A stretch of 64,000 nucleotides of DNA from positions 1 through 64,000 of the forward strand of contig JBDRLL010000020.1 in assembly GCA_043813075.1 (NCBI GenBank). Reading direction: 5' to 3'. Both the position numbers and the translations under genes were made by a program. Every line of letters begins with the position of its first letter. Positions within the stretch are counted from its first letter, which is position 1. The DNA is from Candidatus Altiarchaeota archaeon. Lineage in GTDB: Archaea > Altiarchaeota > Altiarchaeia > IMC4 > SCGC-AAA252-I15. Below the pieces are notes generated by a model. The model was given only the letters and a program-made list of their open reading frames with translations, was not told the origin of the DNA and did not search any database. Positions 12,044 to 33,061 of the stretch are shown here, in pieces.

Positions 12044-12061
12044 AGGAGTATTTGTATAATA

Positions 12062-12090
12062 TATAATATAATCATATCAATTATATTATA
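12062..12090. promoter_or_regulatory. 11-bp perfect inverted repeat directly upstream of the giant-gene pair; candidate promoter or operator
   Basis: TATAATATAAT-catatca-ATTATATTATA, ending 2 nt before ATG 12093. Confidence 0.45.
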
Positions 12091-12092
12091 AT

Positions 12093-15000
12093 ATGGTTTC
12101 CCGTTCAAGGCCACGGAAAATCTTACTTCTACTAGCATTTCTGCTATCTCTGGCACTGGTCTTACAGTCAGTATCCGCTGCCCCATCTCCTGACCCTGAC
12201 AAGGGAAAGGCAAGCGACTCGGACGATTTCACAAGGGCTTTTGACGAAGACCTGACACTCAAGTCGTTCGACAACCTGAAGGTGTATAACGGCACATTCA
12301 TGCTGCTACTCCAGGCGCCGGACAACATGACATTCAACCTCAACCATCCTGCAGTTAAAATCCTCGGGAAGCCGATCATGTCCGTAATAATCCCCATATG
12401 GGAATTCCTCATCGCCCTCGTCGGCATATACTACGTTTGGGGCGGGCTTTCCCCAGCGTCAAGGGCTCAGGCAAAGAACATGATGACAAAGCTGATACTC
12501 GGCCTAATATGCTGCAGCCTGGCTTATCCGATATTCAACCTTTTCCTTGACCTGGAGAGGTTTGCGCTAATCAACGTCCTAAGTGCGGGCGGCATCGTGC
12601 CAGACAGCTGGGACCCGTTCACCTCCACGCCTGCATGGGCTGTCGGGACAATCGGTCTCATAAGCTCGATAATAGGTTTGCTGACCTTCGGTTACGGGAT
12701 AGTCCTGTTGTGTCCCACATACTGTGCTCTAATCTCCATGTGGATAATGCCCTACATGATACTCGGCATGCGCAACATAATAGTCCTCGTACTAGGACTG
12801 TTCTTCCCCATCACCATACTCCTACTATCATTCGACTTCACCAAGGGTCTGGGCAACAAGCTGTTGCACATGAGCCTAGTATGGATTTTCGTACCAGTCT
12901 CGATGGCGGTGATGATAGTGCTTGTGGAAGTCCTCTCGCAGACTCCATGCACAACAGGCGTCGACTGCCTTCCACTCGGCCTCGCCACGCTTGCAGCATG
13001 GCTTCTCGTGGCCGCAGCCCCGATGATGATGACCAGCCTGATGGGCGCGGCCGGCGGACTCTTCATCTCCGCCGGGAGGACTACCGGAAATCCGCGTCTC
13101 ATATTCATGGGCGGCGTCATGCGCGGGCAGGGAGCGCAGGCTTTGACCGAGACCGCATACTACAGTCAGATAAGGGAGACGAGGGTGCAGGGCCCGAGGC
13201 CAGTCGCCGGAGACTATGCGAAGGCTGGTTCTGCTGGCCTCAATTCTCCCGACGGTTATGGTGCTCCGCCTCCCGCCTACCTGATTCGTCCGCCGATGGC
13301 TACCGGTAATGCGGGCGCTGGCGGCGGTTCTAGTGGCGGCGGCGCTGGCGGCGGTAAAGGAGGCAAGGGCGCTGGCGGCTCTGGCGGCAAGTCGGCTGGC
13401 GGCCCCGGTGGCGTTGTCACAGGGAGGACGGCTCCAGGATACGAGGGCTACGCTCACAGCAACCTGGCGCGGACTCGCGCGACCGCATGGCTTGCGAAAT
13501 ACGATACTCACGGCGTGTGGGACAGGGGCATATCAGTTGGAGAGCGGTTAAAGCGTTCCATATTCGGGATGGCCGCCGCCGGCGGATTAAGTCTTGAGAA
13601 CATCTCGGCAAGCCAGTACTACCGGCAGAGGGCTGAGGCATTATGGGGTCAGGGTGCTGCCGGCAAGGCGATGGCGGTTGCGTACGGACTCCGCGCTTTG
13701 GGCCATAACCTTGTCGTAACGCCGATGATGTATGGCGTCGGCGAGTTCACTAAGGGCGCTGTCCGATGGACTGTGGACACCCTGCCGATAGGCAAGAGTC
13801 TTATGCATGTGGCAAACCGGATGACTGGAATGTATGAGACGAAGAAGGTTATGGGTGACGACGGGAAGGAACGGGAGGTCGCAGTCTTCAACTACGGGTG
13901 GCAGAGTCACAGGGGCGTAGTCCGCGACCTTGGTAAGAACATCTACAGCCAGGCCCAGAAGGATGACGAGCGGAGGGCTAGGGGCGAGATGGTGTTGGGT
14001 GTTGAAGGCAGGTACGCTATCGGCGCGGCAGTGGGCGTCGGAATCGCCGCGGCATTCTTCGTGCCTTCCGTCGGACTCTCAGTGCCCATGATGGCTGCTG
14101 TCGGTGGCTTCATGTACGCGAGGATGATGAAGGCTGTCGGCAGGGAGATTACGCTGGCGGAGAATAACAAGGAGGCTTTGGACACGTACGATAAGGCTGA
14201 AAAGGATCACAGCAACTGGACTGCCAAGGGTGGTTTGTTCGACAGGATGGCTGCAGCCAAGTCCAGCTCAGACCACACTACCCTAAGGGACCAGGTGTGG
14301 GGTGACCTCACAATGCCTGAGAAGCAGAGCTTCGGCTACAATCCAGGCGACCCGTCCACAGAGGAGGCTGCCAAGAAAAAAGCCTACGACCACTATATGC
14401 CGGCTGCTAAAGTCAAGGACAACGTTTGGGGTGCGATGACCATGGGCGAGAAGATAACGATGGTTTCCGGCGCCAGGACCGGGTCGCGCGCGGGCATGAC
14501 TGTGGGAGACCAGGTGAGGCGCGCCACCGTGAGCGCGACCGCGGAGCAGAGCTTCTTCCCCTACCAGAACCTACTTGAAAGGGAGGCTAAGAGGATGGGC
14601 ATCAGCACTGCCGACGCGGAGGACAATGCGAAGAGGCATGCGTTGGACCGGGTCCGCAGGTCACGGCAGACCAAGATGTTCGGCCTCGCGACTACAACTG
14701 ACCTGGAGCGTGGGGGTAAGACGGTGGCTCCCGATATGATGAGCTTCAATGCGGCAAGATCCACACTCAAGTCTGTGGGCGTCGCATTCACGGACTTGAG
14801 CAAGGCAGAGCAGAAACGCTTCGTCGACGAGCGGGTGGCGAGCACCGGAGAGTCCGAGGATGTTGCCAGGAAGAAACTGGAGGGCACTCGGGTCGACTTC
14901 GACAAGCTATCCTCCTCCGACGAGCAGTATACTGTCATATCCAAGAAGCAGAGGGAGGGTCTCAGCCAGTCTGACGCCGAAGCTGTCGCAAAGTCTGGCA

Positions 15001-17276
15001 GCAGAGGGAGCGGCAGGATAGACTTCCGTTCACTAGACAAGGAGACGCGGGACCGCATCATAAGCCAGGAAGTCAAGGACAATCCCGGCTTGAGCAGGGA
15101 TGCGGCAGCCAAGTCACTATACTCAAGTGGCGTTGAATTCAGCAGGCTTACAGAGGCCGAGCAGGCTGAGATGGTGCAGGACATTCAGAGGCGCGGCCGC
15201 ATGAAGACTTCTAGCGAACGCTGGGTTGAGGAGCATTCCGGCGCCATAGTAACTGGCGTCGCATTGACCGCCCTAGCAGTCCCAATAGCCCTTGGCGCAG
15301 GTCTTCCACTGCTTCCGTCAGCTATTGCCGGTGTTGGAGTGTGGGCTTCCACAACCAAGCCTGCCCAATGGATGAGCAGGAAAGGCGCGGCTGGCACAAG
15401 CTTCGGGGTCAAGCTGCTTCTAGCGTCCGCACTGCCTGGAGGCGCGATAGTCTACCCACTATACGAGGTGTTCAGGCACGGCCAGAAGGCCGGGGCTGAG
15501 AGGGCTCGGAGACGCGCGACCGGGGAGAAGACTGCCACTGAACAGTGGGCTGAGTCGCATCCACGTTTGAGCCGTACCTTGAGGAATGTTGGGGTGGCTG
15601 GCGCAATCGCGTCAGGTTTGGGCGCGTTCATATACGGTGCTCACCGTGCCGGACAGTATTTCGGGGAGCGCGAGGAAACCAGGAAGCTGACGCGGATGGC
15701 TGAATCGCTGAAGTCAGGCCAGTTCGGCATAGGCCGGTTGAATGACGAGACAGCCAACAGGGTGGCGCGAAAGCTCATAGAGTCTGGGGTAGACACTCCA
15801 ATGCACCTGGCGAACATGAACCCCGGAGAATTAAGTGCAACTCTGGCAAATGCTGGATTGAGTGTCGGGGGTGTTGACGCGTCCCAAGTAAGGGCTGCTT
15901 TCCCCAGGTTGATGGCTGCCAGCACTGAGGATGAGAGGCTCAGGGTGTGGGAGAGTCTAGGATTGTCAACTCCTCAGGCAAGACAACTAACCGACTCATC
16001 ATGGCTCAGAAGCCAGAACAACATAGAAGACGCCTTAGAAGCTGAGAGGAGGGGGGGGTTGGATCCGGCTATCGCCGACAAGATAATCTACGAGGAGATG
16101 CAGAAGGCTGGCGTGCAACGCAGCCTCGGTCATTGGGATGCTACTAATGCTGCTAAGGCAGGCCGAGGTTTCAGCGGCCTCGACAGCAAGGGCAATCTAG
16201 TGTCGTTCACTAAGGAGGAGGCTGCTGACATGGCGAAGCAGGAGCCTGACGAGATAGACAAGAGGATCAAGGCCAAGGCAAGCGAGAGAGACCCTGACGC
16301 CACTACCGTGATGCGTGATGAAGTATTGGACCAGATACATGACGGAGCTATCTCCCAATCCAAGACAATGGACCCCACGTTCACTCACGTCACGGAAGCC
16401 CATGAACTCCTAGGGCTAGATGAGTCCGGACTACTCCAACAGTATGGGATACAGCATATGGGCCAGCTGGCTGAGACATCCACCCACAAGCTGGAGCAGA
16501 TATTCCGTTCCGCAGGCTATGAGGAAAAGTGGGGTATAAGACGGGACGACGACGGCAATCCTGTGCTCGACTCCTCAGGCAACACCCAGCGGGACCCGGA
16601 TGAATTCAGGCGGACTGTCCGCGACATACGGGACAACGCGAGCGTTCTATCAGGCCACGGCAGCGTCGACGACATAAAAGGTGTGGACGAAAACATATCA
16701 AGGGGACTGCAGGACCGGGGATACGACACCACAGGCGACATAACCTTCGCGAGGAGGGGTCAGATGATAGAGTCCGGGATAATAGAGCATGCTGAGGCTG
16801 ACGTCATCCGCAGGAACGCTAAGAGGCTTTCAGAGGAGGGGCACACCGCATTAGACGACCGGATGTTCCAGGGAACAAGGCTCACCGCCTCAGAGCAGTC
16901 GTCTGTGATCAGGTCACTGAACTCCAGGGGTATAACCGATACGAGTCAGGTGGCGTCTGCCGCACGCGGAGACCTAACCGACTCAGGCCTGGGAAGCCAG
17001 TCTGAGATGCAGTTAATCCGCAGGAACGCTTCAAACCTTGCGCGCCAGGGGTATGAGCGGCTGGATGCCCGCGTGTTCACCGGCACCAAGCTTGAGGGTG
17101 ATGCCGGAGCACAGGCCGGGATACTCAGGAGGTTGCAGAGGCACAAGGGTGTTACCACGACGTCCGAGCTTGCTGAGGCGTCAATGAGGGATATCCTGGG
17201 GGTGTCTGGGATAAACGAGTCTAACGTTGGTCGAATACAGAAAGAGGCTGCGAAAGTGTATGCGGAGAGCGAATGA
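12093..17276 (+). CDS. Giant membrane protein A (1727 aa): signal peptide, VirB6/TrbL-like multi-TM domain, Gly linker, helical repeats and a C-terminal helix-hairpin-helix array
   Basis: Signal peptide ending VSA; about 6-8 TM helices with IYY...SPASRAQAKNM..KLILG; HhH-like units such as DIKGVDENISRGLQDRGYDT and ILGVSGINESNVGRI. Confidence 0.75.
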   Translation: MVSRSRPRKILLLLAFLLSLALVLQSVSAAPSPDPDKGKASDSDDFTRAFDEDLTLKSFDNLKVYNGTFMLLLQAPDNMTFNLNHPAVKILGKPIMSVIIPIWEFLIALVGIYYVWGGLSPASRAQAKNMMTKLILGLICCSLAYPIFNLFLDLERFALINVLSAGGIVPDSWDPFTSTPAWAVGTIGLISSIIGLLTFGYGIVLLCPTYCALISMWIMPYMILGMRNIIVLVLGLFFPITILLLSFDFTKGLGNKLLHMSLVWIFVPVSMAVMIVLVEVLSQTPCTTGVDCLPLGLATLAAWLLVAAAPMMMTSLMGAAGGLFISAGRTTGNPRLIFMGGVMRGQGAQALTETAYYSQIRETRVQGPRPVAGDYAKAGSAGLNSPDGYGAPPPAYLIRPPMATGNAGAGGGSSGGGAGGGKGGKGAGGSGGKSAGGPGGVVTGRTAPGYEGYAHSNLARTRATAWLAKYDTHGVWDRGISVGERLKRSIFGMAAAGGLSLENISASQYYRQRAEALWGQGAAGKAMAVAYGLRALGHNLVVTPMMYGVGEFTKGAVRWTVDTLPIGKSLMHVANRMTGMYETKKVMGDDGKEREVAVFNYGWQSHRGVVRDLGKNIYSQAQKDDERRARGEMVLGVEGRYAIGAAVGVGIAAAFFVPSVGLSVPMMAAVGGFMYARMMKAVGREITLAENNKEALDTYDKAEKDHSNWTAKGGLFDRMAAAKSSSDHTTLRDQVWGDLTMPEKQSFGYNPGDPSTEEAAKKKAYDHYMPAAKVKDNVWGAMTMGEKITMVSGARTGSRAGMTVGDQVRRATVSATAEQSFFPYQNLLEREAKRMGISTADAEDNAKRHALDRVRRSRQTKMFGLATTTDLERGGKTVAPDMMSFNAARSTLKSVGVAFTDLSKAEQKRFVDERVASTGESEDVARKKLEGTRVDFDKLSSSDEQYTVISKKQREGLSQSDAEAVAKSGSRGSGRIDFRSLDKETRDRIISQEVKDNPGLSRDAAAKSLYSSGVEFSRLTEAEQAEMVQDIQRRGRMKTSSERWVEEHSGAIVTGVALTALAVPIALGAGLPLLPSAIAGVGVWASTTKPAQWMSRKGAAGTSFGVKLLLASALPGGAIVYPLYEVFRHGQKAGAERARRRATGEKTATEQWAESHPRLSRTLRNVGVAGAIASGLGAFIYGAHRAGQYFGEREETRKLTRMAESLKSGQFGIGRLNDETANRVARKLIESGVDTPMHLANMNPGELSATLANAGLSVGGVDASQVRAAFPRLMAASTEDERLRVWESLGLSTPQARQLTDSSWLRSQNNIEDALEAERRGGLDPAIADKIIYEEMQKAGVQRSLGHWDATNAAKAGRGFSGLDSKGNLVSFTKEEAADMAKQEPDEIDKRIKAKASERDPDATTVMRDEVLDQIHDGAISQSKTMDPTFTHVTEAHELLGLDESGLLQQYGIQHMGQLAETSTHKLEQIFRSAGYEEKWGIRRDDDGNPVLDSSGNTQRDPDEFRRTVRDIRDNASVLSGHGSVDDIKGVDENISRGLQDRGYDTTGDITFARRGQMIESGIIEHAEADVIRRNAKRLSEEGHTALDDRMFQGTRLTASEQSSVIRSLNSRGITDTSQVASAARGDLTDSGLGSQSEMQLIRRNASNLARQGYERLDARVFTGTKLEGDAGAQAGILRRLQRHKGVTTTSELAEASMRDILGVSGINESNVGRIQKEAAKVYAESE

Positions 17277-17282
17277 AGTAGG

Positions 17283-20200
17283 ATGAAGAGGCTAGACTTA
17301 AGGACCATACGGGCGGCGAGCATCACGCGTAAAGTACTGGCCCTAATATTCCTCGGTATTATGGGTCTGCCATTGATATCCTCCACTGTGTCTGCCGAAC
17401 TCATCACTGGCGCGATAATAGTGCTGTCGGCGCTGCTCATCAGCATTGCCTTAAGCGCACTCATGGACTTGTTTGCCATGGCGTGTGTCGCACTCATACA
17501 GGATGCTGCGATATACATACAATTGTATCCCTGCGTATATGCTGGCCCAAGCGGCACAGGCACTTGTGGTTCAGGTTCTATCTCAACATTCTTCTCTATC
17601 ATGGGCGTGACCTACACGCAAGACCCTGTGATAAGGGAGATGAATCGCGTGCTCATAGAATGGTGCAGCGGGTTGTTCATGTTGGCGATAGCATACACCG
17701 GGATATACCTGATATTCATGGCAGGTTCCCCGCACGGCAGGTCTCAGGCTAAAGACATGTTCGTGAGGCTGATAGTCGGCATGGTCATGGTCGCAGTCTC
17801 CCCCATGATATTCCAGTGGATGATAGACATAACAACATCAGTCTCCGGAGAGTTGATGAACCAGGCCATAGCCGCATCCCCCCCTGGTACAGTATCATTT
17901 AGGATAGCCTTCTGGAAGAACATAAAATACTGTTGTACATTCATCGTCTTCATGATAATCCTAGTGCTAGCCACTTTCGTGGCTGTGCTCCGTTTCTTTG
18001 CGATATACATACTAGCATGTCTCTGGCCTCTAGCACTCTTCTTCTATTACTTTGAATTCAGGATACCGTTCCTCGAGGATATAATCAATTTTCGTGCTAT
18101 CGGCCAGTCCATGATAAAACTATCTGTCATCACGATACTCACCCAGTTGATTCAGGCATTCTTCCTTGCGATAACGCTCATAAACCTTTCTGTGAACAGC
18201 GGTTCCCAGATGATAGACTTCATACTAATGTGCGCTGGATTCCTGGGTGTCGTATTCACTCCGATGATTGCAATGCAGTTGCTTGGATGGATAGGCGGAC
18301 TCGTGCACATGGCTTCCACAAGGCCGAGTACTGCCGCCACAAGATTCCTTGCGACCATAATGAGGGGTTACTCAATGGGAGATGCGCTGGTGACTTCGAG
18401 CGGTCAGACAATGATTGGTAGGAACCTCGGTACGGGAACTGGTGGTGAGGCTAAGGGTCCTTCAGGAGGTTTTTGGAGTGGCGTGCCCTCTGGCCATTAT
18501 TTCGGTTCAGACTATTCTATGGATGCCGGATTGTTCAGTGGTTCAGGGGACACGAGGGGGACAGGCTTCACGAACCCCATCTGGTCTGGTAAGAGCGGTT
18601 TCGTTGGTGGAGGCTCGTCTTCAGGTGGTTTGGGCGTGTCTGGAATGCCCTTCGCAGGTCGTACTGGTGTGGTGGCGGGGGGGAGTCCAGGTAGGGGGCT
18701 TAGGCGTGGAATGATTTTACCCAAGTCTACTGCTAGGGCGGGTGGTGCTGGTGGTGCTGGTGGTGCTGGTGCTGGTGGTGCTGGTGGTGCTGGTGGTGCT
18801 GCTGGTGCTGGTGGTGCTGGTGCTGGTGGTGCTGGTGCTGGTGGTGCTGGTGCTGGTGGTGCTGGTGCTGGTGGTGCTGGTGCTGGTGCTGGTGGTGCTG
18901 GTGGTGCTGGTGCTGGTGGTGCTGGTGCTGGTGGTGCTGGTGCTGGTGGTGGCGTTATTGCAGCTAAAAGAAGTGGTGGCGGTGTTGGTGGTGGTGCTGG
19001 TGGTGGCGCTGTTGGCGGGCCTGGAGTCGGAGCACCATCGACAGGCGCAATTTCAGGTGGGCGTTCAGGCTCAAGCGAATCAGGTAATGCATCCGCGATG
19101 GATATGGGCACAGAACAAGGCCCCGCTGGAACACAGGGAATGAGGCATGAATGGACGCCCGCCCAAGGTGATGGCGTTAAGCGGGCGGTAAACCGTATGG
19201 ACGACGTCGACAGGGCTGAGGCAGCCCGAATGCGTGAATGGCTCGCATACGACGCCCAACTCAAGCAGGAAGCCGCAGCCAAAGAAGCCGCGTTAAGAAG
19301 GGCTACTGACGCAGAAGAAGCCCAGAAGAAGGCGGCTGCAGAACGACAGGCTATAGGAAGTTCAATAGCCGCATCACAGGCTGCGCACATGAAGAGCGTG
19401 GAATTCAACCGTAACATAGAACAACAAAAGAATGAGGCGATGGCCCAAGCACTCATGCAGGAGGCGAACCTGAACCCAGGTGACGCCAGCTTCGCTATCT
19501 CAGGGCCAAGGATGAAGGACCAGTGGGAGAGCATATTCCGGGATACGAGTTCAAACGGCATGCAGGGCATGCTGAATTCAGTCAACAGTCAGGAACCGCA
19601 GATAGAGAGGGGTGTTGAGGCGAAGGCGGCTTCCGCAGGCAGGACACTCACTCCAGAGGAAAAGAGGAGTGAAGTCAGCAGGGAGAAGGCGAAGATACTC
19701 CGTAGATACGGCGACGACTACGCGAGGAAACAGATGCTAACACAGTCTGGCGACCCGGTTGTCGGAAACAGGATAAACAACTTCAACAGCATAGGATTCC
19801 AAGACCGTCCGAAGGCTTGGAGTAACATGGTCGACATAGCGGAGGCAAAGACTGGTTCATCATCAATGAATGCGTTGAGGACTTACGTGCGAGGCCCGTT
19901 TGACGGTATGGTGGAGAAGGCTCGCATGTCCGGAGACCCTGACGGGTACATACAAAAAGTCCGCGACACTGAGGTCTCAAGGGCATCCGAGATAGGGGTC
20001 CCCGCCAGCTCCGGACTACAGCATGAAAGACCAGTGGAACATCCAATACCAAGACCATCCCCCTCAAGGCCGACAATAGAGCGGGCAACCCCCATGTCAC
20101 AGACGTCTATAGCATCACGTAAGCAGGTGCCGAGGACTGCTGAGGCGGTGAGGATGGAAGAGCGGAGTGTTGGTGCTGGCTTGCCTAAGTCTGTTGGCGG

Positions 20201-23200
20201 TAAGAAGGTTGTTAAGAAACACGTCCCAGAGGCCAGCAGAACGAGGATGCGTGCTGAGACACCTCCAATGCCTGCTGGCTTAAAGCATGAACCACCTTCA
20301 AAGCCTGGAATAGAACCTCAACAGGCTCCTGAAATTCCAGTCATGCCTGCCACCGTTCCGGAGACAGCATACGTTCCTCCTGAAGCAGTCCCACTAAGCA
20401 CTCCACACGAGAGAGAGGCTGTTAGCGAGAACAAGCCTGCGTCTGCTGGAGTGCCTGTGACTCCAGCTGTAATACCTGATTCATCTAAACGCAAGCATCT
20501 GGGGCATACTGTAATACAGGCTAAACGCGACTTACGCGGGAGCATACGGGCAGTCAACAGCCGTCTGGAGGGGTTGAATTCCCCGCTGGAATCGGAGGCT
20601 AACGGAGCCCGCCAGTATCTTGCGGAAGGGTTGAACCGCTTGTATGGCACCAACTTTAGTGCAGACAACTTCAGGGGCGCTTCAATAGGGTCCGACGGCG
20701 TCCTACAATTTGGTGACGGGGGTTCTGCAGGAATTGAGGAGCTTATGTCCAAGACGCCTGAAGGATATGCTGTGGTATCACAGAGGCTGGGAGTATCCGG
20801 TGCTGAAGGATTCGCGGGGAGGGCTGCGGAAGGAGATGCATTCCAGAGGGGGGGTGTTGCCTTCGTGAAGGACAGTGGAGACAAGCACGCGAGACGGCAT
20901 GAGAAAGAGCACAGGGAAGATGTTTTGATGCCGCACAGGCAGGGTATAGACGCTACAGTATCTGAGATAAAGGCGTTCTCACGCAACGTTGAGGACCGGG
21001 AGCTCGGCTGGTCAGACGTCGGGGGGGCACTGCAGACTGAATACATGCCTGACTTCACGGCAGGACGGGATATGACTCGAGAGGAGGAAGAAGCCTCACG
21101 GGCCAAAGTAGACCACGCAGTATCCAATTCCAGGAGATTCGTCCGCCATGCCACACAGGAATTCGAGGCAATGGGGTTAACCCCAGAGAACGCCAGGGCG
21201 CGGGCATTCAAGCGGCTGAGAAACATGTGCGAGAGTTGCGTGCACTTAGACCAGTTCAACGCGATGACAGACCAGGTGCTCGCAGGCCAGATTACGTCAC
21301 GCGATGCGGTTGGCATGGCGCTAGCAGAGTCGGGATCGATAATAGCCCAACCAACAACAGACTACAATGCAACACCACAACAGGCGTATACTGAAGCACT
21401 AGACCATAAGCTGGCTGTAGGCGGATCATACGGCACCCGCACATTACTTGGAGTGGGTTCATCGGAGTTGTCAGTTCTGGAGGGATACAGTATACGCGAG
21501 ATATGCGCTAGGCCAGACCTGACGAGGGAGCAATTGTTAGGCCTCCAGCATTATGGTGCTGGTTTAAGGTCGGCGGCTGTTGAACGCGGTATTGCTGGAG
21601 ACGAACTAGCCTACACCGACAGGGTGGGCAGGGCTATAAGCCAGAGGGCGGTTGCTGAAGGAGTGAGCAGGGGTCTCATAACCCCCGAGGATGTGGGAGT
21701 GACTAGTGCTGCTCTTGAAAGGTCATTCCAGGAGGATTTGGTGAGAGGCTACATACCTGAAGACCAGAAGATTGTCATAAGACAGGCTTTACAGCAGATG
21801 GCTGTCACAGTACCAAAGCCGGCTGCAGAGCCTCCTGCTCCTGCAGGTGTGCGGCCAAGGCCTGGTGTGGAACCAGGAAAGCATGCTCCAGTTAAAAAAC
21901 CTTCTAAGCTGCCATCCGGAAAACCGAAGCCCTCCAGAGAGCCGGTTACCTCCAGTGAAAAACCTACGTCTGGTGAAGGCCCTAAGCCTGGTGGAGTATC
22001 TAGGCCTGTTGAAGCCACTGTCAGAGCATCACCATTACCTAAGACTCCAGGGGTTGATGCGGACAGGATACTGCACGACAGCATACAGCAGGCCACCCAG
22101 GAAGTCGGCTACCAGACCCCTCGGGAACAGCAGGCTTACGCCAGGTCCCAGGATGCATACGAGAAATTCATCGGATCTGACCATACTCCTCGTGACGCGG
22201 AAGTAGTCGCCACTGAAGTAAGGCATGTTATAGACAACAGGGACATGGATCGTTTCGATAAGTGGGTTAGCATAGCAGAGATACTGTCTGTTGGAATGCC
22301 TGAGATACCGGAACCAGAACCTGTTTCATACGAAGAGGCACCGCCTGAAGTCCCGCGAAAAGTTCCTTTCCTCCAGATGAAGGAGACTAAGTCAACCCTC
22401 CTTGGCGGCTCTATGGGTAGGGAAAGGGCTGGCGGCGAATCAGATGCTGGCAGGGGATACGGATGGACTTCCATGGCGGAGAAGCGAGACGGGGAAGCTT
22501 CAGGCGATAAACCATACGGCTTCACTTCAATGGCTGAAAGGCATGCCGGCAAATCAGTGAACGCGTTAGGTGAGACAATGCGTGAGAAGGCTGGAGAATC
22601 ATTAAGCGAGGCCACCACTGCAAGACCAGTCGGCGAGCACCAGGCAGGGGTCTCAGGAGAATCATCTAAAGGGTTCCAGACGATGGTCCGGCACGGGGAA
22701 GGACAGGGCCAACCCATCCACGGAGCAAAACCGTTCATACCCACGACAGTGGCTGCTAAGACAGCAGAGAAAGTGTCTGAGGGAGTCTCAACTCCGGGTG
22801 TAACACCCGCTCCAAAAACGGCTGCCAGCGGGGAGGAGGCGCCTCAAGCCAAACGCAGGCCATCAGCGACTTCAACCGACTCTGACATGGCGATACCCTC
22901 GCCGCCACATCGGTCTCAGCTGCCAAAGCCGGAGATGGGTGATGAGGAATACTCCGCCACCCTCACCAAAATACGTAGGATGGCTCTCGCAAGGTCTCTG
23001 GAACGGGTCTCTGAGGATGTCTTAAGGCGGGAGGTGCGCAGCCTGACCTCAGAAAAGAAAGTCGATGTCGCCGACGAGGTGAACGGCATGCTATCTGAAA
23101 TGCATCACAAATTCCAGGTCATAGGCAGGTATGGTGGTGAGGAATCCAAGAGCAGGCTATCCTCCTTCAAGGACGTTTATGGTAACGCAAGGGGATACGC

Positions 23201-23849
23201 TCTAAACGGGAACTATGCGATGGCTGTTGATGACATATCTGCGATATCCTCTCAGGTAGACACAGTGTACGCTCAGGCGCTTCAGGAGCAGGGGGTAAAG
23301 GTGCAGGCGCAGCAGATGATACATCAGGCTAAAAACGATCTTAACGCGATGATGAACGGGATGGCTTCGGCGCCAGCGTCACTATCCAACGTAGAGTCTG
23401 CGAAGAAAGACATGCAGGCTGCATTAACTGCCGCTGAAGGCCACATGAGGTCTGGCGAATACGAGAGCGCTCTCGCGGAGATATCCAAGCATCAGGGCCC
23501 ACAGCATGCGGATGGTGGGGAGTCCGAGTCTGCGGTGAAGGGGAAGCATGGTGAGGGGGATTCAGCCGATAAGCCTTATGGTTTCACTCCGATGGCTGCA
23601 GCAGGCAAGGTGGAGGAGTCTAGCGTTCCTGGCGAGCCTTCGCAGCCTTCCATCATGGGTGAAAAACACAAGACTGGAATATCCCCTGGCTCACGTAAGT
23701 CCTCACTACATTCGATGATGCGTGACCGCCATAAATCTGGGGATGAACATACGGATGAAGGCGAGTCTGGTGAACCCGGAAGCGGCCTTGGCGGTGACAC
23801 CATGATGCGTAAGAAAGGATCTAAGAAAAAGAAAAAGACCGGGAAATAG
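17283..23849 (+). CDS. Giant membrane protein B (2188 aa): paralogous VirB6/TrbL-like multi-TM domain, Gly/Ala repeat, Pro-rich linkers, HExxH domain and basic C-terminus
   Basis: TM domain with IYL...SPHGRSQAKDM..RLIVG; (GAGGA)n; HEKEH...SEIKAF; C-terminal KKGSKKKKKTGK. It starts 6 nt after gene A. Confidence 0.75.
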   Translation: MKRLDLRTIRAASITRKVLALIFLGIMGLPLISSTVSAELITGAIIVLSALLISIALSALMDLFAMACVALIQDAAIYIQLYPCVYAGPSGTGTCGSGSISTFFSIMGVTYTQDPVIREMNRVLIEWCSGLFMLAIAYTGIYLIFMAGSPHGRSQAKDMFVRLIVGMVMVAVSPMIFQWMIDITTSVSGELMNQAIAASPPGTVSFRIAFWKNIKYCCTFIVFMIILVLATFVAVLRFFAIYILACLWPLALFFYYFEFRIPFLEDIINFRAIGQSMIKLSVITILTQLIQAFFLAITLINLSVNSGSQMIDFILMCAGFLGVVFTPMIAMQLLGWIGGLVHMASTRPSTAATRFLATIMRGYSMGDALVTSSGQTMIGRNLGTGTGGEAKGPSGGFWSGVPSGHYFGSDYSMDAGLFSGSGDTRGTGFTNPIWSGKSGFVGGGSSSGGLGVSGMPFAGRTGVVAGGSPGRGLRRGMILPKSTARAGGAGGAGGAGAGGAGGAGGAAGAGGAGAGGAGAGGAGAGGAGAGGAGAGAGGAGGAGAGGAGAGGAGAGGGVIAAKRSGGGVGGGAGGGAVGGPGVGAPSTGAISGGRSGSSESGNASAMDMGTEQGPAGTQGMRHEWTPAQGDGVKRAVNRMDDVDRAEAARMREWLAYDAQLKQEAAAKEAALRRATDAEEAQKKAAAERQAIGSSIAASQAAHMKSVEFNRNIEQQKNEAMAQALMQEANLNPGDASFAISGPRMKDQWESIFRDTSSNGMQGMLNSVNSQEPQIERGVEAKAASAGRTLTPEEKRSEVSREKAKILRRYGDDYARKQMLTQSGDPVVGNRINNFNSIGFQDRPKAWSNMVDIAEAKTGSSSMNALRTYVRGPFDGMVEKARMSGDPDGYIQKVRDTEVSRASEIGVPASSGLQHERPVEHPIPRPSPSRPTIERATPMSQTSIASRKQVPRTAEAVRMEERSVGAGLPKSVGGKKVVKKHVPEASRTRMRAETPPMPAGLKHEPPSKPGIEPQQAPEIPVMPATVPETAYVPPEAVPLSTPHEREAVSENKPASAGVPVTPAVIPDSSKRKHLGHTVIQAKRDLRGSIRAVNSRLEGLNSPLESEANGARQYLAEGLNRLYGTNFSADNFRGASIGSDGVLQFGDGGSAGIEELMSKTPEGYAVVSQRLGVSGAEGFAGRAAEGDAFQRGGVAFVKDSGDKHARRHEKEHREDVLMPHRQGIDATVSEIKAFSRNVEDRELGWSDVGGALQTEYMPDFTAGRDMTREEEEASRAKVDHAVSNSRRFVRHATQEFEAMGLTPENARARAFKRLRNMCESCVHLDQFNAMTDQVLAGQITSRDAVGMALAESGSIIAQPTTDYNATPQQAYTEALDHKLAVGGSYGTRTLLGVGSSELSVLEGYSIREICARPDLTREQLLGLQHYGAGLRSAAVERGIAGDELAYTDRVGRAISQRAVAEGVSRGLITPEDVGVTSAALERSFQEDLVRGYIPEDQKIVIRQALQQMAVTVPKPAAEPPAPAGVRPRPGVEPGKHAPVKKPSKLPSGKPKPSREPVTSSEKPTSGEGPKPGGVSRPVEATVRASPLPKTPGVDADRILHDSIQQATQEVGYQTPREQQAYARSQDAYEKFIGSDHTPRDAEVVATEVRHVIDNRDMDRFDKWVSIAEILSVGMPEIPEPEPVSYEEAPPEVPRKVPFLQMKETKSTLLGGSMGRERAGGESDAGRGYGWTSMAEKRDGEASGDKPYGFTSMAERHAGKSVNALGETMREKAGESLSEATTARPVGEHQAGVSGESSKGFQTMVRHGEGQGQPIHGAKPFIPTTVAAKTAEKVSEGVSTPGVTPAPKTAASGEEAPQAKRRPSATSTDSDMAIPSPPHRSQLPKPEMGDEEYSATLTKIRRMALARSLERVSEDVLRREVRSLTSEKKVDVADEVNGMLSEMHHKFQVIGRYGGEESKSRLSSFKDVYGNARGYALNGNYAMAVDDISAISSQVDTVYAQALQEQGVKVQAQQMIHQAKNDLNAMMNGMASAPASLSNVESAKKDMQAALTAAEGHMRSGEYESALAEISKHQGPQHADGGESESAVKGKHGEGDSADKPYGFTPMAAAGKVEESSVPGEPSQPSIMGEKHKTGISPGSRKSSLHSMMRDRHKSGDEHTDEGESGEPGSGLGGDTMMRKKGSKKKKKTGK
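18741..18950 (+). repeat. Coding tandem repeat of 70 codons built only from GGT and GCT (Gly/Ala)
   Basis: Continuous GGTGCT/GGTGGTGCT units from 18741 to 18950. Confidence 0.95.
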
Positions 23850-23859
23850 GGGGTAATAC

Positions 23860-25362
23860 CTAATCTATCTCCTCTAGTATGTGCCCGCCAACTCTTATGG
23901 GCTCTGTCTGTTCCGCGAGCTGTATCGCGTCAGTCAGCTTGTTCTCGTGGGTCGAGTAGATTGTGAACAACTTGTCGTCCACGTTAACCTTATCCCCTAC
24001 GCCGACGTGAAGATAGACTCCAGCCTCCTTGTTCTTGGGTGCTCCGGCAGCCCGCGCAACCTTTGATATGAGCTTATTGTCTATGAACTTCACCTTCCCC
24101 CTGATGGTGGACTTGATTTCATACGTCTTATCCCCCACAGGAATGTCCTCAGGTTTAATCTTCATGTCACCGCCCTGTGCCCCTATAATGTCAAGCATCT
24201 TCTCCTTGGCCTTACCTGTCTTAAGTATCCTCTCCGCGAATTTCTTGCCTTCCCCGTGATGGACTTTACCCGACATCTCAAGGAGGGTTGCGGCCAGCTC
24301 GATGCTCTTGTTGACCAGGTCGGTTGGTCCCCTACCGTCAAGCGCAAGCAGAACGTCCCGCGCCTCAAGGGCAGGTCCTATACCGTTCCCTATGGGCGAG
24401 CTACCGTCGGTTATAAGGCACTTGGTCTTGATGTCCAGCCTGTCTCCAAGCTCTATGAACTTCCTGGCGAGTTCATTAGCCTTCTTGGGGTCATCCAGCT
24501 TAGCCCCCCTGCCCACTGGAATGTCTATGACCAGGAAGTCTGAGTCAACACTCTTCTTCTTTGACATAACGCTAGCTAAAACCTGTCCTTCAGGGTCTAT
24601 GGACAGCGGATACTCTACCCGTATTATCTTGTCGTCCGCCGGCGCAAGCTTCACAGAACCCCCCCAGACGATACAGCCGTTAGTCCTCGATACTATGTGC
24701 TTCAACTCTTCTATGTTGAATTCAACGTTCGCGAGCACCTCCATCGTGTCGGCTGTTCCAGCGGGCGAGGTGATGGCCCTGGAACTGGTCTTCGGCATGG
24801 TCATTCCCGCAGCAGTCATTATTGGCACGACGAGCATGGTCGTCCTGTTGCCTGCCACACCCCCGATACAGTGCTTGTCGACGGTGTCATCCCCGAAGTC
24901 GATCTTCTCCCCAGTCTCAACCATGGCCTTGGTGAGTGACACGGTCTCGTCCATGTCGTAGCCATTGATGTATGTCGCAACCATCAGCGCAGTCAGTTCT
25001 ATGTCGCTCAGGTTGTTGTCGACGATGTCTCGCACTATCTCGTTGATCTCGTATCCATGGAGGTGTTGTCCGTGCATCTTCTTCTTTATGGATTCAATGG
25101 ACTTCGGCCTTCCGGATGCTTTAACCTGGACTGTATCCCCGTTTTTCACGTTGAGATCGTCTTTGACCTCTTCAAAGAGACCGATCTCCCTCTCAGCCAC
25201 CATTGTCGTTGTGGCGTCGATTATCGCAGTCACCCTCTTATCGCCGAAGGAAATCTTCACCCTGTCTCCTATGTGAAGTCCCAGTTCCTTTATGTCCTCG
25301 TCATTCAGGACTACGATGGGCTTGCCAGTCTCTATCTCAAAAATCCTTACCTTTGAATCCAT
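23860..25362 (-). CDS. deoA: AMP phosphorylase (archaeal thymidine-phosphorylase family)
   Basis: N-terminal beta-barrel extension, DKHCIGGVAGN, PKTSSRAITSPAGTAD, APADD, ASVMSKK, GIGPALEA and ARAAGAP. Confidence 0.93.
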   Translation of the reverse strand: MDSKVRIFEIETGKPIVVLNDEDIKELGLHIGDRVKISFGDKRVTAIIDATTTMVAEREIGLFEEVKDDLNVKNGDTVQVKASGRPKSIESIKKKMHGQHLHGYEINEIVRDIVDNNLSDIELTALMVATYINGYDMDETVSLTKAMVETGEKIDFGDDTVDKHCIGGVAGNRTTMLVVPIMTAAGMTMPKTSSRAITSPAGTADTMEVLANVEFNIEELKHIVSRTNGCIVWGGSVKLAPADDKIIRVEYPLSIDPEGQVLASVMSKKKSVDSDFLVIDIPVGRGAKLDDPKKANELARKFIELGDRLDIKTKCLITDGSSPIGNGIGPALEARDVLLALDGRGPTDLVNKSIELAATLLEMSGKVHHGEGKKFAERILKTGKAKEKMLDIIGAQGGDMKIKPEDIPVGDKTYEIKSTIRGKVKFIDNKLISKVARAAGAPKNKEAGVYLHVGVGDKVNVDDKLFTIYSTHENKLTDAIQLAEQTEPIRVGGHILEEID

Positions 25363-25383
25363 GTTTATTAATCCCCAATATTC

Positions 25384-26382
25384 TTAATATACTCCCTCCC
25401 TTGAGTCCCTGTATCGTAGTTCAAGGTTGTTTTCCTCCACCACCCTATCCACCAGTCCCGACACTTTTATCCTCCTCGTAAGATAGTCCGCTATCCTTAT
25501 GGGGTACACTTGAGGATGTATGTGGTCCCTGTCATTAATCCAGACCGATACGAGCGACTCCAAGTCCTCCTGAAAGTTGTCGTAATTGAACTCCCATCTA
25601 ACAGTCATCGGGGCAGACTCTCCTGATGGAAGGCTCTCCATCCTCTTTCCAGGGAGCTTTAGGTAGCATACGTTTATCCCCTGCCTTTTGTCCACCACGT
25701 ATTCCATTGGATCCAATGCTATGTCAAAGAGGAGTGTGTTCGTGCAGTTGAAGCCAAGGCTCCTAGACAGGTCTGTCGCGTGACTGTCCTCCACCATGCC
25801 CACAACCCTCTTTTCACTCAGGAGCCTTCTACTAGCATCAACAGCATCCGAATTCTCGGAGCCATTATCCCTAAGCTGCAGGTTGGCGGTGTTGGTGTAA
25901 AGGCTTCCGTCGACCAGCAGGATGTCCGCATCCAAGCCATCCTTCACTTCCAGGAGCGCTGAATACTCCCTAGCGACCCTAAGTGCGTTAGCCCGCTCTT
26001 CAATGTCAGAATAGGGTATGAAGACGCCGAAGTCGACGTAAGACTCATACTTAAGCTCCCTGTAAGGTAGAGTGCCCTCCCCCACTAGCGGGTCACTGTT
26101 CTCACCACCATCGTATTCCGCATAGACGACTACCGTGTGCAAACCCCATAAAGCGTGATACCTCAACTCCCTCTTAATCATGGAAGAGTCGCACGCCAGC
26201 ATCCTTATGACACCAGCATCATCATTGATGGATATCCTCTTGAAATCTCCTCCGGAACCCTCCACCTTACGTCTTATCTCCCCCCTATCAAGATTTCTAT
26301 GCGAGTCAAGACCCTCAATCAAGGCGGACTTCGACTTTAGAACCGATTCATCTAGGGAGAAGTCTGGTCTTAATTCCCTCAT
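25384..26382 (-). CDS. nurA: NurA-family nuclease
   Basis: RNase H-like acidic motifs LACDSS and LLVDGSL, VVGMVEDS, and C-terminal YPIRIAD. Confidence 0.75.
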   Translation of the reverse strand: MRELRPDFSLDESVLKSKSALIEGLDSHRNLDRGEIRRKVEGSGGDFKRISINDDAGVIRMLACDSSMIKRELRYHALWGLHTVVVYAEYDGGENSDPLVGEGTLPYRELKYESYVDFGVFIPYSDIEERANALRVAREYSALLEVKDGLDADILLVDGSLYTNTANLQLRDNGSENSDAVDASRRLLSEKRVVGMVEDSHATDLSRSLGFNCTNTLLFDIALDPMEYVVDKRQGINVCYLKLPGKRMESLPSGESAPMTVRWEFNYDNFQEDLESLVSVWINDRDHIHPQVYPIRIADYLTRRIKVSGLVDRVVEENNLELRYRDSREGVY

Positions 26383-27272
26383 TGTAACCCGTATTCCTTG
26401 AGCTCCCTCTTCAATAAGTGCACCTGCTTTTCATCCAGCGCAGAAGGGTCTATGGATACGACAAGCCTGCTATCGTGCTGTACCACAACATCCTTTACCG
26501 ATTGTATCATCCGTATCACGTCCTCAAACTTGTTGTGCATTATCAGGTATTCAACACCATCCAAGAGCACAATCCCGTCATCTGTCGTTGACACAAACTC
26601 CTTTATGGTCTGGCTCAGTCCTATCATGCTCGTGGGCTCTATACTATCATCATAACCCTTCTCCCTGGTCAGCCATATGATGGGCGTCTTCAATAGATTG
26701 TATTTATCCCTGATTTTTGGCGGGTAATTGCGTGTAATACATAGTCCGTGTATCCCGTGTTTCACAAGGTCTGAGAACAACTCCAGCGCGGAAATGCTCT
26801 CAGGACTAGACTCCTCTATTATGTGGCTTGAACCAGGATTCACCTTATACTTGGCTTCACCGAGACCCTCCTCATCATTCGCACTCTCCACCAGCATGAA
26901 CTTGTATTTCACCTTACTATCCCCCATCCTACTGTAGAGAAGGTAGCCTCCCACTGTTATCGACACCGCTATCAGCGTCCTGCTAACAGACCCTATCATG
27001 CTGAACGTGGAGACATTTACTCTGAAGCTCTGGTAAAGCCCCAAATTCATGTTGGCGCTGCTGAACATCATCGGAAGGTCTGAGAGATTCAACAACAGTA
27101 TCATGAGGACAGACACGAATATCCACACCCACCCTATGTTCTCCTTCCCAGAGAGGTTGAAGTGCTTGAAAAGCCTGGTCCAATAAACCACGGCGAGAAA
27201 AGACAAGAGTATAGTCAGAATATTAAAGTACAATTCCGTATTCGACAGAAGCAAAGACTTGTATACTATCAT
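26379..27272 (-). CDS. Membrane protein with a C-terminal DUF835 (inactive KaiC-like) domain
   Basis: Three N-terminal TM helices, then GLCITR.YP, IIWLT, VLLDGVEYLIMHNKF and IDPSALDEKQVHLL. Confidence 0.88.
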   Translation of the reverse strand: MIVYKSLLLSNTELYFNILTILLSFLAVVYWTRLFKHFNLSGKENIGWVWIFVSVLMILLLNLSDLPMMFSSANMNLGLYQSFRVNVSTFSMIGSVSRTLIAVSITVGGYLLYSRMGDSKVKYKFMLVESANDEEGLGEAKYKVNPGSSHIIEESSPESISALELFSDLVKHGIHGLCITRNYPPKIRDKYNLLKTPIIWLTREKGYDDSIEPTSMIGLSQTIKEFVSTTDDGIVLLDGVEYLIMHNKFEDVIRMIQSVKDVVVQHDSRLVVSIDPSALDEKQVHLLKRELKEYGLQ

Positions 27273-27305
27273 CCCATATTAATTTTAACTTGAACATATT
27301 TAAGC

Positions 27306-27932
27306 ATGAGCTTGATAATAGCCTTAGACTTTGACGGCACCCTCGTGGATTCAGTTGAAAGCATATGGCTAGAGTTCCAGCGCGTCATTGAAGCAATGGA
27401 CCTGCCCAAAATATCCTATGATGACTTCAAACAACAACTCGGCAAGGTATGGGACAATGTACTGACTGGTTTGTGGCCTGGCATAAACATCCAGGAATTC
27501 AACAGGAATTACCGTGTCGAGGCTGAAAAGCCCATCCCCATCCGCGGGGTCCACACTGCGTTAAAAAAGCTTGAAGACCATTATCCGCTCGTAATACTGA
27601 CGTCGAGGGGCGAGGACACTCTAATCAAGCACCTCGAGCTTACGGGATTCACCACAACCGCCTTCGACGGCATATACCACCGCGACAACCTACCCTATCA
27701 CAAGCCTGACCCAGAGGCCTTGCTGTCTGTCTGCGGGGACTACTCTGTTGATGCGGAAGACCTGTTGTATGTTGGGGACTCGCTAGTCGACTTCGAGTGC
27801 GCTATGAATGCTGGAACGCGTTTTGTCGGAGTGCTTACTGGCGCGGCATCAGGCAGCGACTTCACTGAAAAAGGAGTGGCTGACGTCATAGACTCTGTCA
27901 CTTACCTGCCCGGGTTTCTGGGCCTGGAATGA
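27306..27932 (+). CDS. HAD-superfamily hydrolase (phosphoglycolate-phosphatase-like)
   Basis: LDFDGTLVDS, LTSR, KPDP and YVGDS. Confidence 0.92.
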   Translation: MSLIIALDFDGTLVDSVESIWLEFQRVIEAMDLPKISYDDFKQQLGKVWDNVLTGLWPGINIQEFNRNYRVEAEKPIPIRGVHTALKKLEDHYPLVILTSRGEDTLIKHLELTGFTTTAFDGIYHRDNLPYHKPDPEALLSVCGDYSVDAEDLLYVGDSLVDFECAMNAGTRFVGVLTGAASGSDFTEKGVADVIDSVTYLPGFLGLE

Positions 27933-28390
27933 TCCCTCACAGGCTTTCCCCCAGCTCCATCAATGCACCTACTATCCACTCTACCCTCAGAGCCCTCGAA
28001 GATTCTCATAAACTCGCTAGGCTTCACTATCCTCGCTCCAGAAAAAACATCCAGGTCAAGCAGGTGATGGTCGCTAGTCACGATATAATCCGCCCCGGCT
28101 GCCTCAGCCGCCTCCAGGAAACGGTTGTCGCTCTTGTCAGGGCATAAACTCACCCTTCTGGCAGGAACTACCTTCCTCGCATGCTGGTAGTACCTTATCA
28201 CCTTGTCCAGGTACTCCTTCCCCGGCTTCACCTTCTCCAGTATGAACAGGTTCTCATCTTTTATCTCAAAAGTGTAGACAGCGTTCACCTTATCCTCAAG
28301 GACAAGGTCTATTATACTGTTGCTGCTGCTCCTAGGATTCCACCTGCCTGCGATGAAGAGATTAGTGTCCACCACGATAATCGGCTTCAC
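27902..28390 (-). CDS. PIN-domain protein (PIN_3 / putative toxin family)
   Basis: VVDTNLFIAG, DKSDNRFLEAA and YIVTSDHHLL. GTGA overlap with trm1. Confidence 0.88.
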   Translation of the reverse strand: MKPIIVVDTNLFIAGRWNPRSSSNSIIDLVLEDKVNAVYTFEIKDENLFILEKVKPGKEYLDKVIRYYQHARKVVPARRVSLCPDKSDNRFLEAAEAAGADYIVTSDHHLLDLDVFSGARIVKPSEFMRIFEGSEGRVDSRCIDGAGGKPVRDHSRPRNPGR

Positions 28391-29478: not shown

Positions 29479-29520
29479 CGCTATTATTCTTATACTAACC
29501 ATTTTATATACTAGTTGCAT

Positions 29521-31319: not shown

Positions 31320-31342
31320 ACCCGCTCTCATGAATTAACACA

Positions 31343-31492: not shown

Positions 31493-31528
31493 CCCTTTTA
31501 TTACCATATCATCCAATGGTTAATCGTC

Positions 31529-32233: not shown

Positions 32234-32262
32234 CAAATACTTATCGCAGTGAGCGTTAAAAA

Positions 32263-32505: not shown

Positions 32506-32538
32506 GGTATTTAATGGGTGTGTCGTTAAATAAAGTCT

Positions 32539-33006: not shown

Positions 33007-33061
33007 AAGCCATCCGGGTCATTTATTTTTTCTTAATTAAATACTATCTCAGGTGATTGAG

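Follow-up and report, generated by a model that had tools for sequence, protein, structure and literature searches.

To our knowledge, domesticated chromosomal machines of archaea that resemble type IV secretion systems (T4SSs) have so far been described for two crenarchaeal orders, under the names Ced and Ted, and we know of no relaxase described for either. Here we set beside them a tandem pair of genes for two giant membrane proteins, P0001 and P0002, found in 64,000 nucleotides (nt) of a Candidatus Altiarchaeota archaeon (contig JBDRLL010000020.1, positions 1 to 64,000, assembly GCA_043813075.1); this whole stretch was analyzed and is referred to as the window. In passages of PMC9905601, the Ced and Ted DNA importers of Sulfolobales and Thermoproteales are chromosomal and apparently domesticated, and combine a VirB4-like ATPase and VirB2-like pilins with a VirB6-like protein, CedA or TedA, that has a pilin-like N-terminus. 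Traits of this type recur in the genome studied here, namely a chromosomal location, vertical inheritance and VirB4-, VirB6- and VirB2-like genes, with no coupling protein detected (relaxases were not searched for); CedA and TedA are likened to our proteins by description. The differences are that the lineage is Altiarchaeota, that the ATPase is split in two genes and is closer to the CD1110 and Mycoplasma-ICE VirB4 models than to CedB, and that this one genome holds five VirB6-like paralogues, most of them with tails of 400 to 1800 amino acids (aa). We favor, as moderately likely, the reading that P0001 and P0002 are anciently duplicated, vertically inherited accessory paralogues of a VirB6/CedA-type polytopic subunit in an order-wide chromosomal T4SS-like apparatus.

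Other described systems share single aspects of this arrangement. The RvhB6a-e proteins of Rickettsiales are encoded by several tandem VirB6-domain genes whose long flanking regions diverge between paralogues and are among the most variable parts of the system; passages of the source give them 674-1154 aa and a difference of 12-15% in amino acids between orthologues within a genus (PMC2653234). Unlike the present proteins, they are bacterial, pass the Pfam TrbL model and have conserved orthologues, whereas the tails here can barely be aligned within a genus; the proteins here are also up to twice as long, and the pair lies outside the main T4SS gene cluster. F-type TraG, again likened by description, joins a VirB6-like polytopic N-domain to a large C-terminal domain with a separate task, given in part of the source as mating-pair stabilization and entry exclusion (PMC7555446), but it is plasmid-borne and has a single conserved VirB8-like C-domain. 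The MPF-FATA T4SSs of Patescibacteria (CPR) are chromosomal and, in passages of PMC12102498, consist of PF18895 pilins in divergent arrays together with VirB4, VirB3/PrgI-like and VirB6-like genes, usually without a relaxase (a gene not searched for here). They differ in being bacterial, and those same passages do not mention giant VirB6 tails. Finally, the nanohaloarchaeal 'SPEARE'-type giants are archaeal, membrane-anchored and, in a passage of PMC10266531, assigned by their authors to a T4SS-like system; there the fused part is a VirB4/TraG-like ATPase and the tail consists of Ig-like repeats, whereas here it is a VirB6-like membrane domain and Pfam finds no Ig repeats.

Coordinates below are those of the window, on its forward (+) strand, unless another contig is named. 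The gene for P0001, an 'A-type' giant VirB6-like protein of 1727 aa, occupies 12093..17276, and the gene for P0002, a 'B-type' giant VirB6-like protein of 2188 aa, 17283..23849. Both open reading frames (ORFs) start with ATG and run in the same direction, the TGA of the first being followed by 6 nt and then by the ATG of the second, and together they span 11,757 nt, in agreement with a first-pass annotation of this DNA that had described two co-oriented genes 6 nt apart filling 11.8 kb. Hydropathy predicts in each protein a signal-like segment and about 6 transmembrane (TM) segments within residues 1-340. By homology and hydropathy the N-domain was delimited as aa 1-370 of P0001 (12093..13202), with a signal-like segment, an ecto segment and ~6 TM helices, and as aa 1-390 of P0002 (17283..18452). 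The motifs that the annotation had quoted as common to both are present in the translations, as GIYYVWGGLSPASRAQAKNMMTKLILG and GMRNIIVLVLGLFFPITILLL in P0001 and as GIYLIFMAGSPHGRSQAKDMFVRLIVG and VLRFFAIYILACLWPLALFF in P0002. Whole-protein BLASTP of P0001 against P0002 gave no similarity (best E 2.3); phmmer over all ORFs of the genome linked the two N-domains at E 1e-5 and 5e-6 (residues 85-347 against 114-364), and both also matched three paralogues of 770, 1736 and 2125 aa on a different contig, C10 (E 1e-25 to 1.5e-7). Fourteen columns are invariant across the five N-domains of the genome, including P121, R124, A127, R227, P239, F247 and P310 in P0001 numbering; D153, G254 and G321 are further conserved residues of the P0001 N-domain. 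The phmmer links, the invariant columns and the tree described below uphold the shared multi-TM N-domain, a homology on which the annotation had staked its proposal.

A Gly-rich linker follows each N-domain, as had been noted. From translation and composition it lies at about aa 395-450 of P0001 (13275..13442) and, rich in Gly and Ala, at about aa 385-600 of P0002 (18435..19082), where part of it is encoded by a 9/15-nt tandem DNA repeat at 18741-18951. Residues 401-500 contain 31 Gly in P0001 and 32 in P0002, and residues 501-600 of P0002 contain 52. The tails were correctly called unrelated: phmmer at E<=0.01 matched neither of them to the other or to any other ORF of the genome.

A profile built from the five N-domains was searched against 1.84 billion proteins (cluster representatives) and defined a family of 1822 representatives at E<=1e-3, with 218 at E<=1e-30. 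Of the best 150 matches, 137 have the domain at the N-terminus. The 150 have a median length of 917 aa (at least 1000 aa in 70 and at least 1500 aa in 33), and of the 143 members with a tail of 60 aa or more, 93 contain a Gly-rich linker. The family occurs in 40 of 41 relatives and, across the phylum, in 48 of 61 genomes, which break down into 48 of 49 in the window's order and none of 12 in two other families of the class; genomes have 2 to 18 N-domain matches, often in tandem. Named close homologues come from records titled 'Candidatus Altiarchaeota/Altiarchaeales archaeon', and clustering of about 15 billion sequences at 90% identity leaves P0001 and P0002 each as a singleton. The order's second large taxonomic family (f5) has mostly short N-domain copies, about 330-460 aa, without a tail and in tandem arrays of 3-5 genes (for example G026:C1:86786-89752 and 1246560-1249203); in one single-contig genome, hundreds of kb separate these arrays from VirB4. 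Giant tails belong mainly to the taxonomic family of the window itself.

A multi-TM domain followed by a Gly-rich tail is the layout of TrbL/VirB6 proteins, and a resemblance to them was found in the first helical hairpin of the N-domain. When 150 N-domains were compared by hhalign with the seven VirB2-like pilins of this genome, this hairpin proved homologous to them (Prob 92.6%, E 4.5e-7), the alignment covering residues 94-147 of P0001. The VirB2-pilin-like hairpin was accordingly placed at aa 93-155 of P0001 (12369..12557), where it carries an SPxxRxxAK loop, and, from Pfam T4SS_pilin, at aa 123-183 of P0002 (17649..17831). Taken singly, the P0001 hairpin matches PF18895 below its cut-off (E 0.0016 in the genome search); that of P0002 matches Pfam T4SS_pilin over residues 131-179 (E 0.0015) and in the genome search scores 26.5 bits, or 27.1 with neighboring in-frame matches, against a cut-off of 26.6. 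According to passages of Beltran et al. 2023, CedA shares homology with the pilin CedA1 at its N-terminus, and a like relation links VirB6 with VirB2, so that homology of the hairpin to the cognate pilins is a VirB6-type feature (PMC9905601). In a Pfam census of 56 family members, TrbL and T4SS_pilin were the most frequent families: TrbL matched 14 at E<=0.01 (best 3.1e-6, sub-threshold) and T4SS_pilin 12, with HHH_5 in 2 and ten other listed families in one each. Three of 7 further members also matched TrbL, scoring 21.7-23.4 bits where the cut-off is 25.9 bits, as did the 770-aa paralogue on C10 over residues 201-305, where both scores, 22.6 bits in the genome search and 16.3 bits by hmmscan, lie below that same value. 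The alignments of these three members and the paralogue are co-linear, about residues 180-320 corresponding to profile positions 79-212 of 215, and one close homologue carries a precomputed TrbL_3 label.

These similarities might instead be a compositional artefact of hydrophobic helices, in which case the N-domains would be an unrelated multi-TM family with no link to type IV secretion. A series of comparisons weighs on that side and against a VirB6 assignment. Every TrbL match in the family is below the curated cut-off (PF04610), P0001 and P0002 have no Pfam TrbL match at E<=1, and TrbL_3 (PF19590) has no match in this genome. By hhalign the family is not significantly similar to R388 TrwI (E 0.081, Prob 0.7%) or to 120 TrwI relatives (E 0.24), and the family profile (HMMER) found no match in the R388 record or among PDB sequences. 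Both TrwI alignments pick one helix pair with a conserved Pro (P0001 residues 223-284 against TrwI 165-226). A Trp is frequent in the family (WIF, W264 in P0001), but it is absent from P0002, stands outside the invariant and nearly invariant columns and does not align with the TrwI Trp; the family thus has no counterpart of the invariant Trp of the TM/cytoplasmic region that is stated for bacterial VirB6 in passages of PMC2653234. The hairpin match, on the other hand, spans the polar loop (d/s)P..R..AK and so involves more than hydrophobic residues, TrbL and T4SS_pilin head the Pfam census by a wide count, and in at least 18 genomes the genes keep an order that includes VirB4, VirB3-like and pilin genes. 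We therefore regard an artefact as highly improbable. Since the TrbL matches are sub-threshold, the family is not filed as a proven Pfam TrbL member; it is treated as VirB6/CedA-like by architecture and context, and P0001 and P0002 are, we think with good confidence, VirB6-type homologues. The annotation had called them VirB6/TrbL-like channel subunits: the pilin-like hairpin and the co-linear TrbL alignments speak for the first part of that name, tempered by the cut-offs and the TrwI comparisons, and 'channel subunit' would describe a presumed role.

The N-domain runs from a signal-like segment through the pilin-like hairpin, whose loop reads SPxxRxxAK, to four more TM helices that bear R...FP...FDFTK motifs. 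Across the 150 members it is acidic ahead of the hairpin and in loops 2 and 5, and basic in loop 1 (K+R 3.3), loop 4 (K+R 2.8) and the stretch after the last TM (K+R 2.0 vs D+E 1.0). In the five-crossing model of VirB6 the N-terminus is outside and the C-terminus cytoplasmic. Hydropathy and loop charges give the family a polytopic layout of the same type, with at least 5 TM segments, the N-terminus outside, an external loop after TM2 and 5 or 6 crossings. The charges fit a VirB6-like five-crossing topology with the tail inside, provided that the TMc-Arg-TMd element crosses the membrane once; otherwise the tail would be outside. For A. tumefaciens VirB6, the five-crossing model is one of two competing models in the passages of the source (PMC2653234). 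N-glycosylation sequons are not enriched in the tails, with 6 observed vs 4.9 expected and 3 vs 5.1.

A hairpin of pilin ancestry raises the alternative that the proteins are themselves pilus-borne or secreted, taken into the pilus or channel either as minor pilins or as substrates, with their tails displayed or delivered in this way. Homology of the hairpin to the cognate pilins would suit such a role, as would the upkeep of seven pilin genes in arrays, a pattern also found in Patescibacteria in passages of PMC12102498. However, the four further conserved TM helices that follow the hairpin in all 150 family members examined argue against extraction from the membrane, and the architecture is that of VirB6/CedA rather than of a pilin, so we give this alternative very little weight, slightly less than a compositional artefact.

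The first-pass annotation had named a VirB4-like ATPase and pilins as partners to be sought in the rest of the genome. A VirB4-like ATPase, seven VirB2-like pilin genes and a VirB3-like gene were found there. The core locus lies on contig C10 of this genome (G000), at 21286-36268 (L016, 1286-16268), with its genes in one direction. The first encodes a 115-aa pilin (T4SS_pilin E 7.6e-12, TrbC E 1e-5); it is followed by the 2125-aa family member, a Zn-ribbon protein, the 770-aa family member and a 402-aa ORF for which no match was found. Then come the split VirB4 genes (L016:12189-15353 = C10:32189-35353). The 294-aa product has a PrgI/VirB3-like start and a body that matches the N-terminal region of VirB4 models (E 2.6e-15; positions 83-277 of one), and the 759-aa VirB4 matches conju_CD1110 at E 1.7e-88 (297.7 bits), the Mycoplasma-ICE VirB4 at E 5.6e-73 and VirB4_CagE at E 7e-33. 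Against the CedB model it scores E 1.2e-15, and its 57 bits vs a cut-off of 700 do not indicate orthology to CedB. Judged by these profiles, the VirB4 here is of the split, monoderm (MPF-FATA-like) kind. Two more pilin genes follow it, and directly after them an O-phosphoseryl-tRNA synthetase-like gene. For a coupling protein, TraG-D_C gave no match and T4SS-DNA_transf had no more than weak P-loop hits, in two ORFs of about 510 aa that resemble HerA.

Two further loci of this genome touch on the same machinery. Four tandem VirB2-like pilin genes (99-108 aa) on C36 (84741-86031; L018) adjoin an AglB/STT3 oligosaccharyltransferase gene, a hint that the pilins may be glycosylated. The fifth VirB6-like giant, of 1736 aa, heads a row of co-oriented ORFs of 148, 1502, 266 and 871 aa on C10 (78558-92178; L017); none of these has a Pfam family, though there is a weak hint of an M23 peptidase, and they may form a further accessory module.

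Of 41 relatives, 38 were found to have VirB4, with 59-82% identity in 32 full-length copies from other genomes and 85-87% in two partial copies; this spread and these identities agree better with vertical inheritance than with a mobile element. In at least 18 of these 38 genomes a family member is no further than about 10 kb from VirB4, a lower bound because a further 163 N-domain matches among the relatives lie beyond those listed. Thirteen of 24 VirB4-neighbor loci come from Altiarchaeota/Altiarchaeales records, and the remaining 11 carry the titles 'uncultured archaeon', 'Euryarchaeota archaeon' or 'Methanobacteriota archaeon'. The gene context with VirB4, VirB3 and VirB2 is seen for the two core paralogues on C10, the pair itself having housekeeping flanks. 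That P0001 and P0002 work with the C10 machine we hold to be only a little better than an even bet.

The pair is an old locus. It is syntenic between the HcyBio, NIL/Fer4 and 224-aa ORF genes on one side and the AMP-phosphorylase, NurA and DUF835 genes on the other in G001, which belongs to the same genus, and in G012, G004 and G013; in G019 the pair is present and, of the flanks, the right one alone is on the contig, which makes five other genomes from four genera. A tree of 24 N-domains (one row with <230 profile positions was left out) placed 6/6 syntenic copies of P0002 in a B-type clade (support 100/98) and 4/5 syntenic copies of P0001, plus one copy from G002, in an A-type clade (100/99), the G019 copy falling outside it on a long branch; 9/9 short copies of the core locus form one clade (100/99). 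A recent insertion of a mobile element is rejected on the grounds of the synteny across four genera and the clade structure.

Within this stable frame, the tails change fast. Flanking proteins are 47-79% identical to those of the same-genus genome G001, where identity is about 57% for the N-domain of P0001 and 18-47% for its tail, taken in windows of 100 residues, and where the N-domain of P0002 is 51% identical and its tail alignable in two pieces only. In other genera the recognizable parts are the N-domains (29-39% identical) and a mid-domain of the A-type protein (25-32%) only. The core paralogues behave in a related way, with 30-44% identity in their N-domains, against 78-79% for VirB4 of the same genomes, and with a tail of the giant that can be aligned in its proximal part only. 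The comparison of tails among relatives, which the annotation had suggested, thus gives conserved anchors and tails that are not. Searches with the tails and the orthologues were largely silent. A word-index search with the P0001 tail returned P0001 itself only, a related-locus search with P0001 returned no relative, and Pfam on five full-length syntenic orthologues gave weak pilin matches in 2/5 and no tail domain. PADLOC had no match, and PHROGs gave one weak family match with no annotated function; among public sequencing runs no RNA run matched, and one DNA run contained 0.20 of the words. Contigs from that DNA run were short and of low depth, 27 of 64 at 99% or more, and carried no information on variation or expression.

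The tail of P0001 opens with the mid-domain of A-type proteins, aa 471-800 (13503..14492), recognized by phmmer, tblastn and hydropathy and bearing a hydrophobic hairpin at aa 640-671. It is common to the other family members P0070, P0049 and P0072 (phmmer, E 1.7e-21 to 3.5e-19) and 25-39% identical in 4/5 syntenic loci (tblastn). Further hydrophobic segments occur at aa 1049-1083. At the C-terminus, aa 1515-1724 (16635..17264), are three tandem ~70-aa helix-hairpin-helix (HhH) repeats. Pfam HHH_5 (PF14520) matches residues 1684-1720 with 27.1 bits vs a cut-off of 27 (E 6e-6), NCBIfam matches the region to the RadA N-terminal region (E 5.5e-6) and the NusA C-terminal repeat (E 3.5e-4), and among PDB sequences it has weak matches to NusA (E 0.075) and RAD51 (E 0.51). 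HhH repeats are typical of intracellular nucleic-acid binders.

The tail of P0002 is of low complexity, rich in Gly, Ala, Pro, Ser, Glu and Lys, and contains an apparently folded, zincin-like domain at aa 1070-1400 (20490..21482), delimited by homologous copies and without a match in Pfam, NCBIfam or PDB sequences. The domain occurs twice in P0095, a 2584-aa family member, and in three other genomes of the order. Alignment placed an HExxH(R.D)-x17-E motif at 20898..20966 (H1206, E1207, H1210, D1213, R1219 and E1228). The HExxH and the downstream Glu (x17) are invariant in 9/9 aligned copies, and in alignment A4 (7 sequences) H137, E138, H141, D144, R150, E159 and W174 are invariant; the HExxH-x17-E spacing is known from gluzincins. 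A C-terminal helical module, aa 1893-2069 (22959..23489), is 31% identical to a separate 215-aa ORF of G001 (L031:4721-5368, contig C29), which there lies downstream of a shorter, 1720-aa orthologue of P0002, a fission/fusion difference between close relatives. A private motif, (K)PYG(F/W)T(S/P)MA, occurs in three copies at aa 1726, 1745 and 2099 (22458-22532 and 23577-23594); it was found in none of the other 270 proteins compared and in one unrelated ORF of the genome.

From these modules the annotation had read a DNA-binding array into P0001 and a possible protease into P0002. For P0001 the three HhH repeats stand, with DNA binding as their presumed activity, and for P0002 the invariant HExxH...E stands, with proteolysis as a possible activity. 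The distribution of both counts against reading them as what the locus does: the HhH array is present in G000 and G001 only, that is, in one genus and 2/49 genomes of the order, and the zincin-like domain in 4/49 including this one, so neither is a conserved function of the locus. It is reasonable to take 'DNA-binding' and 'protease' as labels for putative modules of this genus, not as locus-wide functions. That the HhH tail handles DNA is a tentative suggestion, clearly short of even odds, and activity of the zincin-like domain as a protease appears about equally doubtful.

How the two proteins would act must be weighed against a further alternative, that they are stand-alone giant membrane-anchored proteins of contact, adhesion or kin recognition, whose anchor is derived from VirB6 or a pilin but which operate without the VirB4 machine, their tails facing outward toward neighbors, viruses or symbionts. 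The pair is on a different contig from VirB4, with housekeeping flanks and no adjoining T4SS gene, and the short-copy arrays of the order's one single-contig genome are likewise remote from VirB4. The tails diverge far faster than their neighbors, that of P0002 being almost unalignable within the genus, and are low in complexity, with much Pro, Gly, Ser and Glu; whether they lie inside or outside hinges on the TMc-Arg-TMd crossing, and the P0001 tail has hydrophobic segments of its own. Giant membrane-anchored proteins have moreover been proposed for host contact in nanohaloarchaea, in passages of PMC10266531. Set against this, both genes in the VirB6 position of the conserved core locus begin with the same N-domain, the charge pattern favors cytoplasmic tails, sequons are not enriched in them, and the HhH repeats are of a type at home inside the cell. 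On balance we think stand-alone function unlikely, at perhaps one chance in several, and retain, with the moderate confidence expressed above, P0001 and P0002 as accessory subunits of the VirB6/CedA type, docking to the VirB4 machine and tethering there the tails peculiar to each lineage.

Under this accessory-subunit reading, the N-domains would take a place next to or within the machine powered by VirB4, serving as alternative or auxiliary platform subunits, and the Gly-rich linkers would tether the lineage-specific tails at the machine. In this genus P0001 would supply a membrane-associated mid-domain and three HhH repeats that may bind nucleic acid non-specifically, which could serve DNA handling at the channel in a system without a coupling protein. 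P0002 would supply a long low-complexity tail whose zincin-like HExxH...E domain might act in processing a partner, a substrate or the envelope. The analogy with Ced/Ted would make contact-dependent exchange of DNA or other macromolecules between cells the most likely task of the machine.

The surroundings of the pair agree with the annotation's description of housekeeping flanks: the neighboring genes encode aconitase, HcyBio, NIL/Fer4, an AMP-phosphorylase-like protein, NurA, DUF835 and HAD proteins. For HcyBio, the named neighbors were distant taxa only, at about 50% identity, and gave no taxonomic guidance. Directly 5′ of the P0001 gene, an AT-rich, TATA-like spacer of 49 nt (12044..12092) is, from its composition, a candidate archaeal promoter. 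The annotation had also stated that no T4SS partner lies in the window, and this held for VirB4 (AAA_10 has no match on this contig, C20) and for separate pilin genes (no pilin-model match on C20 outside the pair); integrases and relaxases were not searched for. The NurA-domain gene is followed by the DUF835 gene (25384-27272) with no adjoining HerA gene, and HerA-like ORFs of about 510 aa sit on contigs C25 and C3. The genome has 24 ORFs of at least 1000 aa, the longest of 3444 aa; four of them carry the VirB6-like N-domain, the fifth paralogue being the one of 770 aa, and other giant ORFs lie on C19 (42636-52970), C40 (4841-12436), C33, C35 and C25.

In the library searched, no paper joined Altiarchae* with VirB4. 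Seven papers paired Altiarchae* with 'type IV secretion', in none of them in the title or abstract, and passages of one dealt with another subject; and an Altiarchaeum transcriptome paper had no occurrence of secretion, pili or conjug*. The comparisons point to the pair and the C10 core locus as a third domesticated archaeal system of the Ced/Ted type, present to judge from its N-domain family in 48/49 genomes of the order, whose closest models are conjugation machines of the monoderm type. Altiarchaeales form biofilms and are also hosts to episymbionts. A bolder suggestion, which we consider improbable and slightly more so than stand-alone function, is that they run a domesticated T4SS-like machine with interchangeable VirB6-type base subunits, in which giant hypervariable tails are specificity or cargo modules, among them in this genus the HhH array and the zincin-like domain, and the A/B pair is a polymorphic locus deciding with whom DNA or proteins are exchanged. 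The partners might then be biofilm kin, episymbionts or competitors, and tail turnover might reflect self/non-self discrimination or an arms race. If the tails are indeed specificity or cargo modules, this would be a new way of diversifying a secretion machine. A VirB6-like subunit that has been multiplied and fused to long, fast-changing tails is a natural experiment on the cargo of the least understood T4SS subunit, and the locus offers a handle on how biofilm-forming archaea exchange material.

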